Sequence record: MK295204
Direction: 5' to 3' (one strand)
DNA: 64,000 nucleotides
DNA from: Shigella phage vB_SdyM_006
This document shows positions 1,128-31,534 of the stretch, piece by piece. Position numbers and translations under genes: made by a program. The notes under the pieces are model-generated. The model did not search any database and had not been told where the DNA came from. It saw nothing but the letters and a program-made list of their open reading frames with translations. Numbering within the stretch: the stretch's first letter is position 1; every line of letters begins with the position of its first letter.

Positions 1128-1203
1128 TGGTACACCTACGGGAATTCGAATCCCGGTTACACGCTCGAAAGGCGTGGGTCCTAGACCACTAGACGATAGG
1201 TGC
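1128..1203 (-). tRNA. tRNA-Glu (anticodon UUC)
   Basis: Manual cloverleaf on reverse complement: 7-bp acceptor stem, T-loop TTCGAAT, anticodon loop CTTTCGA, 3' CCA encoded. Confidence 0.8.
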
Positions 1204-1210
1204 ATTAAAA

Positions 1211-1302
1211 TGGAGGAGAGTATGGGATTCGAACCCATGGAACAGCGTAACTGTCCAACGGTTTTCAAGACCGTCTCAATAATCCATCTCTGACAACTCT
1301 CC
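1211..1302 (-). tRNA. tRNA-Ser (anticodon UGA), type II with long variable arm
   Basis: Acceptor GGAGAGT/ACTCTCC, anticodon loop CTTGAAA, long variable arm, T-loop TTCGAAT, CCA encoded. Confidence 0.8.
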
Positions 1303-1309
1303 AATATAA

Positions 1310-1627
1310 TTAAAACAGTAGACTATAAACAGTACCTTTACAATCTATAGGTTGTGTTTTTGAATATTCTTTAAATAGATTTAAATAACCAATTTCTTCA
1401 GGTTCCCATTGTCCTTCTAAACCATAACATGAACAATGTGAGCCGTTAACTTCCCAAAATATATCATTACTATCTTTGAAGATTACAGTAGCATACCCAG
1501 AATAATCTTCATAATCGTAATATGCTAAAATGATTTCTTTGTCATTAAGTGAATCCATAGGGATTTGGAATTCATGACAGATGTCTTCTTTTGAAGTAAA
1601 CAGTTCCATAAACACATTAGTTTTCAT
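1310..1627 (-). CDS. hypothetical protein
   Basis: Track ORF 1310..1720 trimmed to internal ATG at 1625-1627 (MKTNVF...) because the 5' extension overlaps tRNA-Asp. Confidence 0.45.
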   Translation of the reverse strand: MKTNVFMELFTSKEDICHEFQIPMDSLNDKEIILAYYDYEDYSGYATVIFKDSNDIFWEVNGSHCSCYGLEGQWEPEEIGYLNLFKEYSKTQPIDCKGTVYSLLF

Positions 1628-1650
1628 ATCAATATCCTCAAAATTAATTT

Positions 1651-1726
1651 TGGCGGTCTTACCGAGAATCGAACTCGGTGCTGTTCCGTGACAGGGAACT
1701 ATGTTAACCAGGTACACCATAAGACC
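1651..1726 (-). tRNA. tRNA-Asp (anticodon GUC)
   Basis: Acceptor GGTCTTA/TAAGACC, anticodon stem GTTCC/GGAAC with loop CTGTCAC, T-loop TTCGATT, CCA encoded. Confidence 0.8.
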
Positions 1727-1919
1727 TTAAAAATGTACCCATCCGGCTTTCCAGTCTGGTGAAGGGTTGTCACCTCTAGTTTAAACCTGCTAGTCAAGTA
1801 ATAATTGCATATCGTCCAATTATCAAAACCGTCTAGGTTATATTACACCACTTCCTAGAATACCGTCTAAGCGGACTTGATCGACGTAGATTACACCATA
1901 TACGTCTGATTGTGGAATT

Positions 1920-1994
1920 TGGAGCGATCTACGGGTATCGAACCCGTATCTTCTGGGTGGAAACCAGAAATAATAGCCATTATACTAAGATCGC
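1920..1994 (-). tRNA. tRNA-Gly (anticodon UCC)
   Basis: Perfect acceptor stem GCGATCT/AGATCGC, anticodon loop TTTCCAC, T-loop TTCGATA, CCA encoded. Confidence 0.85.
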
Positions 1995-2615
1995 ATATTT
2001 ATTAATAAATCTTCTTGCTTGGGTATGACTTAATCCTATATGTTTAGCAAATTTATTTAAGTTACCTCTTATTGAAATATCAAATGATTTTAATATTTCT
2101 AATCTATAATTAATTTCGTCTTTTGACAATGTAGAGGCATTATTAATAGAAATTTTGTTTTTAGATATATCCGAATGTCTCTTATTTTTAAAACCAAACG
2201 AATTTTTCTTTTTGCTAAAATCATATAATCCGAGTCTAAGTCTTTTCTTAAATGTATTAACTTGTTTACTTATAGTTAATTTAGATTTTGGCAATGAATT
2301 TATATAATCCCAACCACCTTCACCACCAACTTTTAAATTATATGTATTTTTGCTTTTAACAAATTTTTCTGTAACTATTTTGGCTTCATGTATAAACATG
2401 TCATACTTATTTTTATGAAATTTTAAAATAGTTTTTTCAAAATTTTCTTTGCCATATTTTTCTATGGCTTTTTTCAAAATCTTACCTGAACCAAAATATC
2501 CATCTTCTAAATCTTTGGTTTTATGAACACCTATATAAATTTTATTATTTATTTTATTTTTAATTTTGTATGTATAATAAAACATTATAGCCTTATTTAT
2601 CTTTTGGTACTCCAT
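1980..2615 (-). CDS. GIY-YIG homing endonuclease (Seg-like) embedded in the tRNA cluster
   Basis: N-terminal GIY-YIG motif (FYYTYKIKNKINNKIYIGV...GSG), basic C-terminal region; T4 segB sits in the equivalent tRNA region; 3' end overlaps tRNA-Gly by 15 nt. Confidence 0.6.
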   Translation of the reverse strand: MEYQKINKAIMFYYTYKIKNKINNKIYIGVHKTKDLEDGYFGSGKILKKAIEKYGKENFEKTILKFHKNKYDMFIHEAKIVTEKFVKSKNTYNLKVGGEGGWDYINSLPKSKLTISKQVNTFKKRLRLGLYDFSKKKNSFGFKNKRHSDISKNKISINNASTLSKDEINYRLEILKSFDISIRGNLNKFAKHIGLSHTQARRFINKYAILV

Positions 2616-2779
2616 TCTTTATTAGTTGCTTTATTAACAGCAGTAGAATAAGAATTTTTAATATCTTCTGTAACAGAATAGCCAGTTAACATAGTAGAAA
2701 TTAAAATAACATATCCAAGCATTAATAAAATACAAGATAAAAATCCTGCAATAATAAGAATTGTACCTAAAGTAGTCAT
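2597..2779 (-). CDS. small hydrophobic (membrane) protein
   Basis: Track ORF 2597..2890 trimmed to internal ATG at 2777-2779 (MTTLGTILIIAGFLSCILLMLGYVILI...) because the 5' extension overlaps tRNA-Met/Ile. Confidence 0.35.
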   Translation of the reverse strand: MTTLGTILIIAGFLSCILLMLGYVILISTMLTGYSVTEDIKNSYSTAVNKATNKEWSTKR

Positions 2780-2798
2780 ATTGTTCTCACAAATTATT

Positions 2799-2874
2799 TG
2801 GTGACCCACCATGGAATCGAACCATGCTCCAACGCTTATGAGGCGTTCGCTTTCAACCAGTAAGCTAGAGGGCC
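2799..2874 (-). tRNA. tRNA with CAU anticodon (Met, or Ile if lysidine-modified)
   Basis: Anticodon stem AACGC/GCGTT with loop CTCATAA, T-loop TTCGATT, CCA encoded; one T-T mismatch in acceptor stem. Confidence 0.7.
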
Positions 2875-2881
2875 TTGCAAT

Positions 2882-2966
2882 TGGTGGCACCGGGTAGACT
2901 CGAACTACCGAAGGCCGAAGCCTGGAGATTTACAGTCTCCTGTCATTGCCGCTAGACTACGATGCC
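2882..2966 (-). tRNA. tRNA-Tyr (anticodon GUA), type II
   Basis: Acceptor GGCATCG/CGGTGCC, discriminator A, anticodon loop CTGTAAA, long variable arm, CCA encoded. Confidence 0.8.
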
Positions 2967-3011
2967 TTTTCTTATCAATAACGACTAAAAATAATCGTTA
3001 TTAATCAGAAT

Positions 3012-3088
3012 TGGTACACACTACTGGATTCGAACCAGTGACCTACGGTTTAGAAGACCGTTGCTCTATCCATCTGAGCTAAGCATGC
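3012..3088 (-). tRNA. tRNA-Arg (anticodon UCU)
   Basis: D-stem GCTC/GAGC, anticodon stem ACGGT/ACCGT with loop CTTCTAA, T-loop TTCGAAT, CCA encoded; three G-U pairs in acceptor stem. Confidence 0.75.
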
Positions 3089-3089
3089 A

Positions 3090-3380
3090 TTATAAGTACT
3101 GTTTAATCAGTTCTTCGTTATTTTTAAAAAGAATAAAAATATTATCACGAACTTCAGTATCTGAGATATGCCATTTCATAGCATCAATTAAAATGTCTTT
3201 TGGGATCATATTATATAAATTATTTAGTAAAGCAATATTATTTATATCAATATCAACTTCAAATAATTCAAAAATACAACACGAAATAGAATCATAAAAA
3301 TCTTTAATGTCTATTTCATACTTAGACAAATTATTTATAAATTCTGTTTTAGCTTGTTCTGGATTATGTGCTTTAAACAT
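3090..3380 (-). CDS. hypothetical protein
   Basis: ORF in track, same strand as neighbours, no recognisable motif. Confidence 0.45.
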   Translation of the reverse strand: MFKAHNPEQAKTEFINNLSKYEIDIKDFYDSISCCIFELFEVDIDINNIALLNNLYNMIPKDILIDAMKWHISDTEVRDNIFILFKNNEELIKQYL

Positions 3381-3402
3381 TTTTATTCCTATTATTCTAA
3401 AA

Positions 3403-3477
3403 TGGCAGGCTCTGTAGGAATCGAACCCACGTCTTCGGATTTGGAATCCGGTATTCTACCGACTGAACTAAGAACCT
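3403..3477 (-). tRNA. tRNA-Trp (anticodon CCA)
   Basis: Acceptor AGGTTCT/AGAGCCT, anticodon loop TTCCAAA, T-loop TTCGATT, CCA encoded. Confidence 0.75.
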
Positions 3478-3478
3478 T

Positions 3479-3562
3479 TGGCGGGCAGTGTAGGATTCGA
3501 ACCTACGTCGTCAAATGACACGGATTAACAGTCCGCTGCTTAATCCACTCAGCCAACTACCC
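3479..3562 (-). tRNA. tRNA with GUU (Asn) anticodon but type-II architecture (13-nt variable arm)
   Basis: Acceptor GGGTAGT/ACTGCCC, discriminator G, 3-bp D-stem, anticodon stem GCGGA/TCCGT with loop CTGTTAA, variable-arm hairpin GTCATTTGAC, CCA encoded. Confidence 0.6.
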
Positions 3563-28410: not shown

Positions 28411-28495
28411 ATAAGTATATAAACAAATTAAATGATGGGGGTGGGTTATTTTTGGACACTGGTACAATAGCTCGTTAAGAAGGTACATAGTATTA

Positions 28496-29281
28496 ATGGG
28501 AGATTTATTCTCTCATGTTTCTGTTGCCAGGATACGAGATGATAAAATAAAATATATAAGAGTTCCTATTACATATAAATCTAAAGAAAGATTTGTTCAA
28601 GTATTAAATAAATATACAAACCCTTCTAGTCAAGAAAATATTGCTAAAGTCGAAACAGTTTTACCACGAATGAATTTAAACCTTGTTGATATGATGTATA
28701 ATTCTGGGTATAAAACTTCTCAAGCTAATAGAACCATGTCTAGAGAAAATGGGTTAAGAACATATTCTCAATACGCGCCAACGGCTTTTAAGATGATATT
28801 TGAATTAGGAATATACACTAGAAATCAGGACGATATGTTTCAAATTGTTGAGCAGATTCTTCCTTATTTCCAGCCACATTTTAATACAACAATTACAGAA
28901 ATGCATACAAATCCTATTAAAAAATTTGATAGAGATATAAGAATAGCGTTCCAAAGTGTTGCTATTGATGAAACACCAGATGGTGATGTTAATACAAGAA
29001 GACATATAGAATGGTCTATTATGTTTGAAGTTAATGGATGGATTTATCCACCTGTTGCTGACATTAAAGGCGAAATTAAAACAGTATATGTTAATTTCTT
29101 TAATGAGAAAGTAGAACTTACTCCTGAAGGAGAATTTGAAGAATTCGAAGAATTTGAATCAGTAGATCACCAGGTAGTCCCAGATGACGTTCAGGAAGCG
29201 GATTGGGATGGAGAAAGTGTTACTACATATTCTAGAAATAAGCCTATTCCTGTTGATCCTGATAAGCCTAAACCGAGGTAA
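28496..29281 (+). CDS. 15: tail sheath stabiliser / tail terminator gp15 (coordinates from first ATG; conserved N-terminal codons lie upstream from about 28448)
   Basis: MGDLFS...IRVPITY.SKE.F matches T4 gp15; the in-frame upstream codons ...IFGHWYNSSLRRYIVL match the T4 gp15 N-terminus (MFGYFYNSSFRRYATL) but contain no ATG. Confidence 0.85.
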
Positions 29282-29283
29282 TT

Positions 29284-31534
<2,251 letters not shown>

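Follow-up and report, generated by a model that had tools for sequence, protein, structure and literature searches.

Translation of gene 15 in the T4-like Shigella phage vB_SdyM_006 probably begins at a conserved AUU codon, possibly derived from a homing-endonuclease gene junction

In the 64,000-nucleotide stretch of the Shigella phage vB_SdyM_006 genome analyzed here (record MK295204; hereafter the window), the gene for the tail terminator and tail sheath stabilizer gp15 is annotated from an ATG at position 28496. We propose that translation of this gene probably starts 48 bases further upstream, at an AUU codon at 28448. Initiation at AUU is supported by the coincidence of the codon with the ancestral start position, by a very strong Shine-Dalgarno sequence at the spacing expected for initiation, and by the conservation of this arrangement in many phage lineages. 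The start currently annotated for gp15 is wrong in the window and in at least 10 other deposited genomes: the protein is listed 15–16 residues short, or with ad hoc starts, in Proteus phage phiP4-3 and in phiR1-RT, LC53, KpV477, Merci, F48, HMGUkp2 and ZZ1/Henu6, and many metagenomic gene calls carry the same truncation. The segment dropped from these annotations contains invariant residues and a contact with the neck protein gp14.

The gp15 reading frame is open from 28436 and encodes the conserved amino terminus of the family, IFGHWYNSSLRRYIVL, 5′ of the annotated ATG. An earlier note on this DNA had observed that the frame holds no ATG back to the stop codon that closes it on the 5′ side, and we find that there is no in-frame ATG, GTG or TTG anywhere between 28436 and 28495. 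The ATT that the note had matched to the initiator methionine aligns with the ATG of the relatives PM2, Pm5461, SJ_PmiM, Rgz1 and PSTRCR_127. Present as the note described are also an out-of-frame ATGATG and a run of five G residues (28437–28441), both within GGGGGTGGG; the frame opened by the ATGATG could reach that of gp15 only by a +1 shift. Three explanations had been left unranked, namely AUU initiation, a programmed +1 frameshift and a homopolymer sequencing error. The evidence set out below supports the first, makes the second unlikely and refutes the third. To those options we add a connection with a homing-endonuclease junction and the systematic misannotation of the gene.

Conservation upstream of the annotated ATG is, on the alignments with related phages that the earlier note had called for, far beyond chance. 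Over codons 2–16 the predicted window protein is identical at all 15 positions to those of PM2, Pm5461 and SJ_PmiM. With Morganella phage Rgz1 and Providencia phage PSTRCR_127 as outgroups, we count 5–6 substitutions in these codons on the window lineage, all of them synonymous. Across the 13 ATT alleles described below, synonymous differences (pS = 0.84) greatly outweigh nonsynonymous ones (pN = 0.13; pN/pS 0.16), and not one allele carries a stop or a frameshift in this segment. Such substitution patterns indicate that codons 2–16 are under purifying selection, that is, that they are translated. Similarity to T4 gp15 likewise runs from residue 1 to residue 1, as the earlier note's amino-terminal alignment had implied, with residues 1–277 of the full-length product matching residues 1–271 of the T4 protein at E = 1e-90 (phmmer against PDB structures 3j2m/4hud); the family PF16724 is recorded for the 261-residue product annotated in the window and for its homologues. 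Among 95 full-length homologues, every one starts at MFG, M1-F2-G3, S8 and Y13 are invariant, and R11 is present in 94. Longer calls of the form MGPLGPLGEI-MFG are confined to eight proteins and look like over-extensions by gene callers. In the T4 virion, R11 of gp15 forms a salt bridge with gp14 (PMC12929629).

If the annotation were correct, gp15 would start at Met17 (ATG 28496) as a 261-residue protein lacking its first 16 residues, and the conservation upstream would be a relic that has not yet decayed. We consider this very unlikely. Met17 is indeed the first in-frame ATG, the one adopted by both GenBank and RefSeq, and a weak AAGG (predicted pairing −6.4 kcal/mol) lies upstream of it. 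However, the exclusively synonymous change on the window lineage, the low pN/pS and the intact frame in 13 of 13 ATT alleles are not what a relic would be expected to display. Residue 17 is leucine in 32 of the 95 full-length homologues, so Met17 cannot be the general start, and the ATT alleles L122, KpV477 and Merci, which also have Leu17, would be left with no fallback. The segment that would be lost holds the invariant residues, the R11–gp14 salt bridge and most of a helix predicted at residues 9–20, which a start at Met17 would cut. This helix is all that the AlphaFold monomer model, of moderate quality (mean pLDDT 69, with residues 1–8 below 50), supports. A start at Met17 would furthermore leave the strongest Shine-Dalgarno sequences of the region without a purpose. 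The Met17 AUG is itself enclosed in a predicted 8-bp hairpin and separated by about 12 nt from its Shine-Dalgarno-like element. The hairpin could suppress internal initiation, or it may merely reflect the conserved MGD..SH codons. Relatives of the PM2 type have a perfect version of it (ATGGGAGA..TCTCCCAT). Overall RNA structure around the start gives no signal (minimum free energy −12.4 kcal/mol, z = 0.0).

The sequence that precedes the ATT is exceptional by the standards of this genome. The predicted duplex of GGGGGTGG with the 3′ tail of 16S rRNA has a free energy of −13.2 kcal/mol, which makes it the second strongest of 84 starts in the window; the 83 annotated starts have a median of −5.9 kcal/mol and only one of them is stronger. 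Sites at or below −12 kcal/mol number only 16 in 128 kb (both strands), or about one per 8 kb per strand, and GGGGG has only two occurrences on the + strand. The core of the Shine-Dalgarno sequence, GGGGG, is separated from the ATT by 6 nt. Upstream of the ATGATG we find no Shine-Dalgarno sequence (predicted pairing −0.7 and +0.8 kcal/mol for its two ATGs), and the ATGATG is probably incidental, because the G that ends it also opens the Shine-Dalgarno sequence. The spacer between gp14 and the ATT is 37 nt long in the window; in PM2, Pm5461 and SJ_PmiM gp15 begins 22–23 nt past the gene 14 stop, and the window has about 15 additional bases where these phages carry the ribosome-binding site GAGAGGTTAAA.

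We propose that the 30S subunit would be held on the mRNA by the very strong, extended Shine-Dalgarno sequence GGGGGUGG (28437–28444), whose core, 6 nt upstream, would place the AUU in the P site. Initiator tRNA would then read AUU as formylmethionine, and the product would be a normal gp15 of 277 residues with the invariant amino terminus Met-Phe-Gly. AUU is a documented weak start codon in bacteria, used by infC, and it supported about 5% of the AUG level in one test with a phage gene (PMC5499595). In the proposed mechanism the weakness of the codon would be offset by the strength of the Shine-Dalgarno sequence, and weak initiation may be tolerable for a protein of which each virion needs only six copies. 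In this scheme the out-of-frame ATGATG would play no part. Mutation of the ATT, or of GGGGGTGG to CCACCTGG, would then be expected to abolish gp15 expression, mutation of the ATGATG would be expected to have no effect, and the amino-terminal peptide should be (f)MFGHWYNSSLR.

The arrangement is widespread. At least 12 further T4-like phages, from at least seven genera and including cultured ones, carry ATT at the gp15 start position. Examples beyond phiP4-3 were found through a protein database with contig look-ups and through INPHARED; exact-pattern scans for the module in IMG/VR, JGI metagenomes and GTDB genomes returned only phiP4-3 and chance matches. The 13 ATT alleles compared here are those of the window, of six Logan assemblies or pairs, of LC53, of phiR1-RT, of KpV477/Merci/F48/HMGUkp2 and of ZZ1/Henu6. 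The junction reads ATAATGGGGGTGGGTT-ATT in L015 and identically in L029, AATTGGGGGTGGTTT-ATT in L030/31, AATTGGAGGTGTCTT-ATT in L032, TAGTTGGGGGTGGTTT-ATT in L016-18, TAATGGGGGTGGTTT-ATT in L028, TAATGGAGGTGGGGT-ATT in L121 and AAGTGGGGTGGGGT-ATT in L122. Serratia phage LC53, Yersinia phage phiR1-RT and Klebsiella phages KpV477, Merci, F48 and HMGUkp2, in which the annotated gp15 start is Met17 or a TTG at codon 16, share TAA-TGGGGGTGGTTT-ATT TT(T/C) GG. Acinetobacter phages ZZ1 and Henu6 have AAGGAGAATTAAA-ATT-TTTGGT, that is, a Shine-Dalgarno sequence of the native type with the start codon alone changed. A GG(G/A)GG core lies exactly 6 nt from the ATT in 12 of the 13 alleles, and no canonical in-frame start separates the upstream stop from the conserved coding sequence in nine of the 12 other alleles, nor in the window. 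Predicted Shine-Dalgarno pairing is stronger in ATT alleles (median −14.5 kcal/mol, n = 13) than in ATG alleles (−7.2, n = 8; Mann-Whitney p = 1e-4), a comparison among alleles that are not phylogenetically independent.

Variation among these alleles is informative as to which elements are retained. L032 and L121 have GGAGG in place of GGGGG, a change that turns a G-U pair into A-U, improves the pairing and removes the run of five Gs; the Shine-Dalgarno sequence is thus kept while a slip site in the G-run is lost, which is variation of a compensatory type. In ZZ1 and Henu6 the shifted frame lacks an NTG, and the stop of an endonuclease gene lies one codon before. In L122 the NTG, here a GTG, is in frame with gp15 and the spacing from the Shine-Dalgarno sequence to the ATT is unchanged. 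What is conserved is therefore the Shine-Dalgarno sequence, the 6-nt spacer and the ATT, and not the upstream NTG or its frame. At the DNA level, homologues called from Met17 fall into two classes, ATT alleles and miscalled genes whose start is a normal ATG. On this basis Erwinia phage Cronus, L027 and L120 were rejected as ATT cases, having a normal ATG that was merely mis-called, and matches of the JS98 type (Dhakavirus) were rejected as instances of the module, their sequence being the canonical AGGAGGTTTG-ATG. Two of the records themselves deserve comment. In ZZ1 (NC_018087.3, about 99016–99090) gp15 is annotated in a shifted frame (MYKVMRRREG...), and CAAAGTAATG has one A more than the frame of its relatives (HVQVMRR) needs, which suggests that either the record contains a frameshift error or the indel is real. 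In Henu6, gp15 is annotated from an ATG 17 codons upstream, within the 3′ end of the endonuclease gene.

These variants also bear on whether the ribosome could instead start at the ATGATG (28432/28435) and enter the gp15 frame by a programmed +1 shift, slipping on U UUU U (28449–28453) or on G GGG G (28437–28441), with the G-rich element acting as a stimulator like that of prfB. The product would be MMGVGY-FGHWY... or MMG-WVIFGHWY..., with MMGVGYFGHWYNSSLR or MMGWVIFGHW as the amino-terminal peptide. The ATGATG frame does join that of gp15 after a +1 shift, both runs permit perfect re-pairing, and GGGGG..UAU UUU UGG resembles the Escherichia coli prfB site AGGGGG UAU CUU UGA. In 11 of the 13 ATT alleles the shifted frame has an ATG or TTG ahead of the G-run, and in the endonuclease-carrying phages this NTG overlaps the endonuclease stop (TAATG), as does the real ATG start in phage KIT01. 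We nevertheless regard a frameshift as quite unlikely. The ATGATG lacks a Shine-Dalgarno sequence, and a 30S subunit bound to the strong one downstream cannot place it in the P site. Stimulation of the prfB type needs a Shine-Dalgarno-like element about 3 nt from the shift codon, whereas the GGGGG core (ending at 28441) is 8 nt from the UUU codon at 28450 and the 6 nt to the AUU are the spacing of initiation. The A-site codon would be an ordinary UGG (Trp), neither a stop nor rare. L032 and L121, with GGAGG, have no G-run on which to slip; ZZ1 and Henu6 have the ATT but no NTG in the shifted frame; and in L122, where the NTG is in frame, a slip would be destructive. No genuine extension precedes MFG in any of the 95 full-length homologues.

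A third rival is a spurious base, introduced by sequencing or assembly, in the G5 or the T5 run, or else transcriptional slippage on these runs that would restore an ATG-started frame; removal of one G or T puts the ATGATG in frame (MMGWVIFGH... or MMGVGYFGH...). Taken together these options are extremely unlikely, and sequencing error is effectively refuted. The window, phiP4-3 and the Logan assemblies ERR11525534 and SRR30397383, four independently sequenced genomes, share exactly the same 126-nt start region, outside which they are 0.3–1.6% divergent: phiP4-3 differs from the window at 19 positions in 6.8 kb, and the two assemblies, which encode the exact 261-residue product, differ at 63 and 68 positions in 4–6 kb. 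These are independent assemblies of distinguishable strains, and at least 12 other phages from different laboratories have the same arrangement. Alleles without the G5 run exist, and phiR1-RT and F48 have TTTTC in place of the T-run. As for slippage, runs of five are too short for RNA polymerase to slip on efficiently.

Several observations weigh against initiation at the AUU. AUU is a poor initiator and is discriminated against by IF3 (PMC5499595). In two lineages another start could serve, namely an in-frame GTG that lies four codons upstream in L122 and an in-frame ATG that lies 17 codons upstream in Henu6. In 11 of 13 ATT alleles the G-run is closely preceded by an ATG or TTG whose frame is offset from that of gp15 by one base in the 5′ direction, and the U-run that follows (U UUU U; UUU C in phiR1-RT and F48) makes a +1 slip formally possible. 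The contrast in Shine-Dalgarno strength draws on alleles that share ancestry, and the selection seen on codons 2–16 could in part be older than the acquisition of the ATT. Our search found no proteomic, ribosome-profiling or toeprint evidence for phiP4-3 or other ATT phages.

With regard to the origin of the ATT, we favor, with moderate confidence, the view that the module TGGGGGTGG(G/T)TT-ATT represents the 3′ junction of a free-standing, MobE-like HNH endonuclease gene, and that the window copy would be a co-conversion footprint or a remnant left after loss of the gene. In L016-18, L028 and L121, and in the cultured phages LC53 and phiR1-RT and the Klebsiella phages, the module lies immediately after the stop of an open reading frame (ORF) of 195–201 codons between genes 14 and 15. 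The encoded protein has an HNH motif of the HHILP type (read by eye) and a NUMOD3 motif. Its matches, in 155 phage records, are genes annotated as MobE-like homing endonucleases. The window junction, TGGGGGTGGGTT-ATT, corresponds to the TGGGGGTGGTTT-ATT of LC53, phiR1-RT, KpV477, Merci, F48, HMGUkp2, L016 and L028. In near-isogenic pairs the switch from ATG to ATT goes with the endonuclease gene. L027, which lacks the endonuclease and reads AAAGGATAAAAA-ATG, and L028, which has the endonuclease and ATT, share 98.2% identity downstream; homology ends exactly at the start codon. Of two Yersinia phages, TG1 lacks the endonuclease and reads TAAGGAATAACC-ATG, and phiR1-RT has the endonuclease and ATT; their gp15 genes share 98.6% identity, with a cluster of changes in the first 36 nt, and their gp14 genes are 97–100% identical except for the last ~100 nt, where identity falls to 52–62%. 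Divergence of the flanks of this kind is a signature of co-conversion. In the L028 contig (Logan SRR28387184) bases 1–350 begin with the translation LGDVYKRQ, which looks adapter-derived, and the endonuclease ORF is split over two frames, as an assembly artefact or as a decaying gene beside an intact ATT module.

Elsewhere the module stands without the endonuclease, beside the phage's own native intergenic sequence or a terminator hairpin (the window, L015, L029, L030/31, L032 and L122). Against an endonuclease origin stand the window itself, in which tblastn with two endonuclease sequences found no homologue (best E = 3.4), and three phages, vB_EcoM_005 and KIT01 of Escherichia and MY742 of Enterobacter, that carry the endonuclease with a normal gp15 ATG. 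The same three rule out the idea that ATT is obligatory wherever the endonuclease is present. They show another arrangement at the insertion site shared with the ATT phages: the endonuclease gene ends in TAATG or TGATG, its stop overlapping the gp15 ATG, the gp15 Shine-Dalgarno sequence GAGAGGTG is encoded in the last codons of the endonuclease, and the first five gp15 codons are replaced relative to endonuclease-free JS98.

A broader proposal, which we offer only tentatively, is that a MobE-like cassette has rewired gp15 initiation across T4-like phages. Its 3′ boundary would replace the native ribosome-binding site and convert ATG to ATT with a compensating Shine-Dalgarno sequence, and the ATT would persist and spread even in the absence of the endonuclease as part of a target that cannot be cut. 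That the ATT itself confers resistance to cleavage is a weaker idea, since vB_EcoM_005, KIT01 and MY742 keep ATG beside the endonuclease. If the broader proposal holds, non-AUG initiation at gp15 would have arisen from homing-endonuclease conflict, either as a side effect or as a defense. The link with the junction makes it possible to test whether a selfish element has altered the expression signals of the essential gene next to it. TG1 and phiR1-RT, both cultured, form a natural near-isogenic pair.

The proposed mechanism belongs with the known non-AUG (AUU) initiation of the infC and pcnB type. In those E. coli genes, too, a near-cognate AUU is read by initiator tRNA, is conserved for one gene across relatives and sets a low intrinsic efficiency (PMC5499595). 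Unlike them, gp15 is a late structural gene of a phage and not a host gene autoregulated by IF3, its AUU is paired with an extended and near-maximal Shine-Dalgarno sequence, and the AUU is patchy in distribution, tracking a mobile element rather than vertical descent. Mutants of T4 rIIB in which AUG was changed to AUA likewise retain reduced but real translation from a near-cognate start (cited in PMC5499595); those are laboratory mutants with a phenotype, whereas the non-AUG start of gp15 is natural and conserved. To prfB, which encodes RF2, the region is similar in its GGGGG element upstream of UAU-YUU-UGR, in a short upstream frame that needs a +1 shift and in a slippery P-site codon able to re-pair in the +1 frame. 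It differs from prfB in the distance from core to shift codon (8 nt as opposed to 3), in having no stop or hungry codon in the A site, in an upstream AUG without a Shine-Dalgarno sequence, and in a zero-frame start that is absent from ZZ1 and in frame in L122.

Like the free-standing homing endonucleases of T4-like phages (MobE, SegB, SegG), the gene found in gp15 relatives is of the MobE-like HNH/NUMOD3 kind and lies between two essential genes, and pairs of phages with and without it differ in the flanks, over ~100 nt at the 3′ end of gp14 and ~36 nt at the 5′ end of gp15. Promoters embedded in seg and mob genes are known to provide expression signals for downstream essential genes (PMC2988022), and the cassette at gp15 likewise supplies such signals to its downstream essential gene. 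Unlike those cases, the cassette boundary at gp15 replaces the Shine-Dalgarno sequence and makes the start codon non-AUG, and the window retains the junction alone, with no endonuclease. Relative to T4 gp15 (PF16724; PDB 4HUD, 3J2M), homology is full-length, residues 1–16 included, and the gene order 13-14-15-16-17 is the same; only the start codon and the ribosome-binding site differ. Our incomplete literature search found no report of a start-codon change at an endonuclease junction of this kind or of an AUU start for gp15. Should the AUU be used as proposed, gp15 would be an essential phage structural gene with an AUU start that is both natural and conserved, beside one of the strongest Shine-Dalgarno sequences of the genome. 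It would be a clean system in which to ask to what extent a non-canonical start can be offset by Shine-Dalgarno strength during infection and whether IF3 levels tune the production of a low-copy virion protein.

Table 1. Features of the gene 14–gene 15 region of the window, with positions counted from its first base.
Feature	Position	Strand	Basis or remark
Gene 14, neck protein gp14, 247 aa	27667..28410	+	ORF list; phiP4-3 annotation; Pfam PF11649 on the identical gene
Gene 14 stop, TAA	28408-28410	+	directly upstream of the gp15 region, no homing endonuclease between
ATGATG	28432..28437	+	frame offset one base 5′ from that of gp15; start of a 12-codon ORF, MMGVGYFWTLVQ, closed by a stop
TGA stop closing the gp15 frame on its 5′ side	28433..28435	+	sequence
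Shine-Dalgarno sequence GGGGGTGG	28437..28444	+	8 bp with the 16S rRNA 3′ tail UCACCUCC, two G-U pairs included
ATT, proposed initiation codon	28448..28450	+	at the position of the relatives' ATG
Proposed full-length gene 15, tail terminator / tail sheath stabilizer, 277 codons + stop	28448..29281	+	homology, selection
ATG annotated as gp15 start; conserved internal Met17	28496..28498	+	ORF list; phiP4-3 annotation
8-bp hairpin ATGGGAGA-TTTAT-TCTCTCAT enclosing the Met17 AUG	28496..28516	+	terminator-like scan; predicted

The region around gp15 comprises genes 13-14-15-16-17, the block of neck and tail genes of a T4-like phage. Its closest relative is phiP4-3 (Bragavirus), to which the window is 99.7–99.9% identical (99.7% across 20 kb) and in which gp15 is annotated as 261 residues from the ATG equivalent to window 28496. 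In one 4.3-kb stretch the two differ at 14 positions, each of them the third of a codon, so the window looks like a natural close relative of phiP4-3. The 3′ end of gene 17 departs from this pattern, with five differences within nine bases (31511–31519); outside it the differences are scattered and in third positions. The next-nearest relatives, the Proteus phages PM2, Pm5461 and SJ_PmiM, share about 85% DNA identity, and gp15 of SJ_PmiM and Pm5461 is annotated with 277 residues. In the PM2 record (NC_055727.1, 73164–75541) gp13 is split into two coding sequences (237–743 and 748–1164 of the locus) and gp15 ends early, at 681 nt as against 834 nt in its relatives; both are probably frameshift errors in that record. 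The 159-residue small terminase gene, gp16, of SJ_PmiM (MW367898.1, 99437–99916) is labelled "terminase large subunit" in GenBank.

Inspection of the sequence ruled out a bypass of the gene 60 type between the GGTACA(A)TAG repeats at 28461–28470 and 28483–28491, which would skip conserved residues. On the minus strand, positions 1128–3562 of the window hold a cluster of nine tRNA genes (Glu-TTC, Ser-TGA, Asp-GTC, Gly-TCC, Met-CAT, Tyr-GTA, Arg-TCT, Trp-CCA and Asn-GTT). A special phage tRNA for the AUU start was ruled out, the tRNA-Met having the ordinary CAT anticodon. The phiP4-3 RefSeq stretch that ends at the match to window base 1 contains eight tRNA genes, comprising six that are shared and Pro, with no Trp or Asn.

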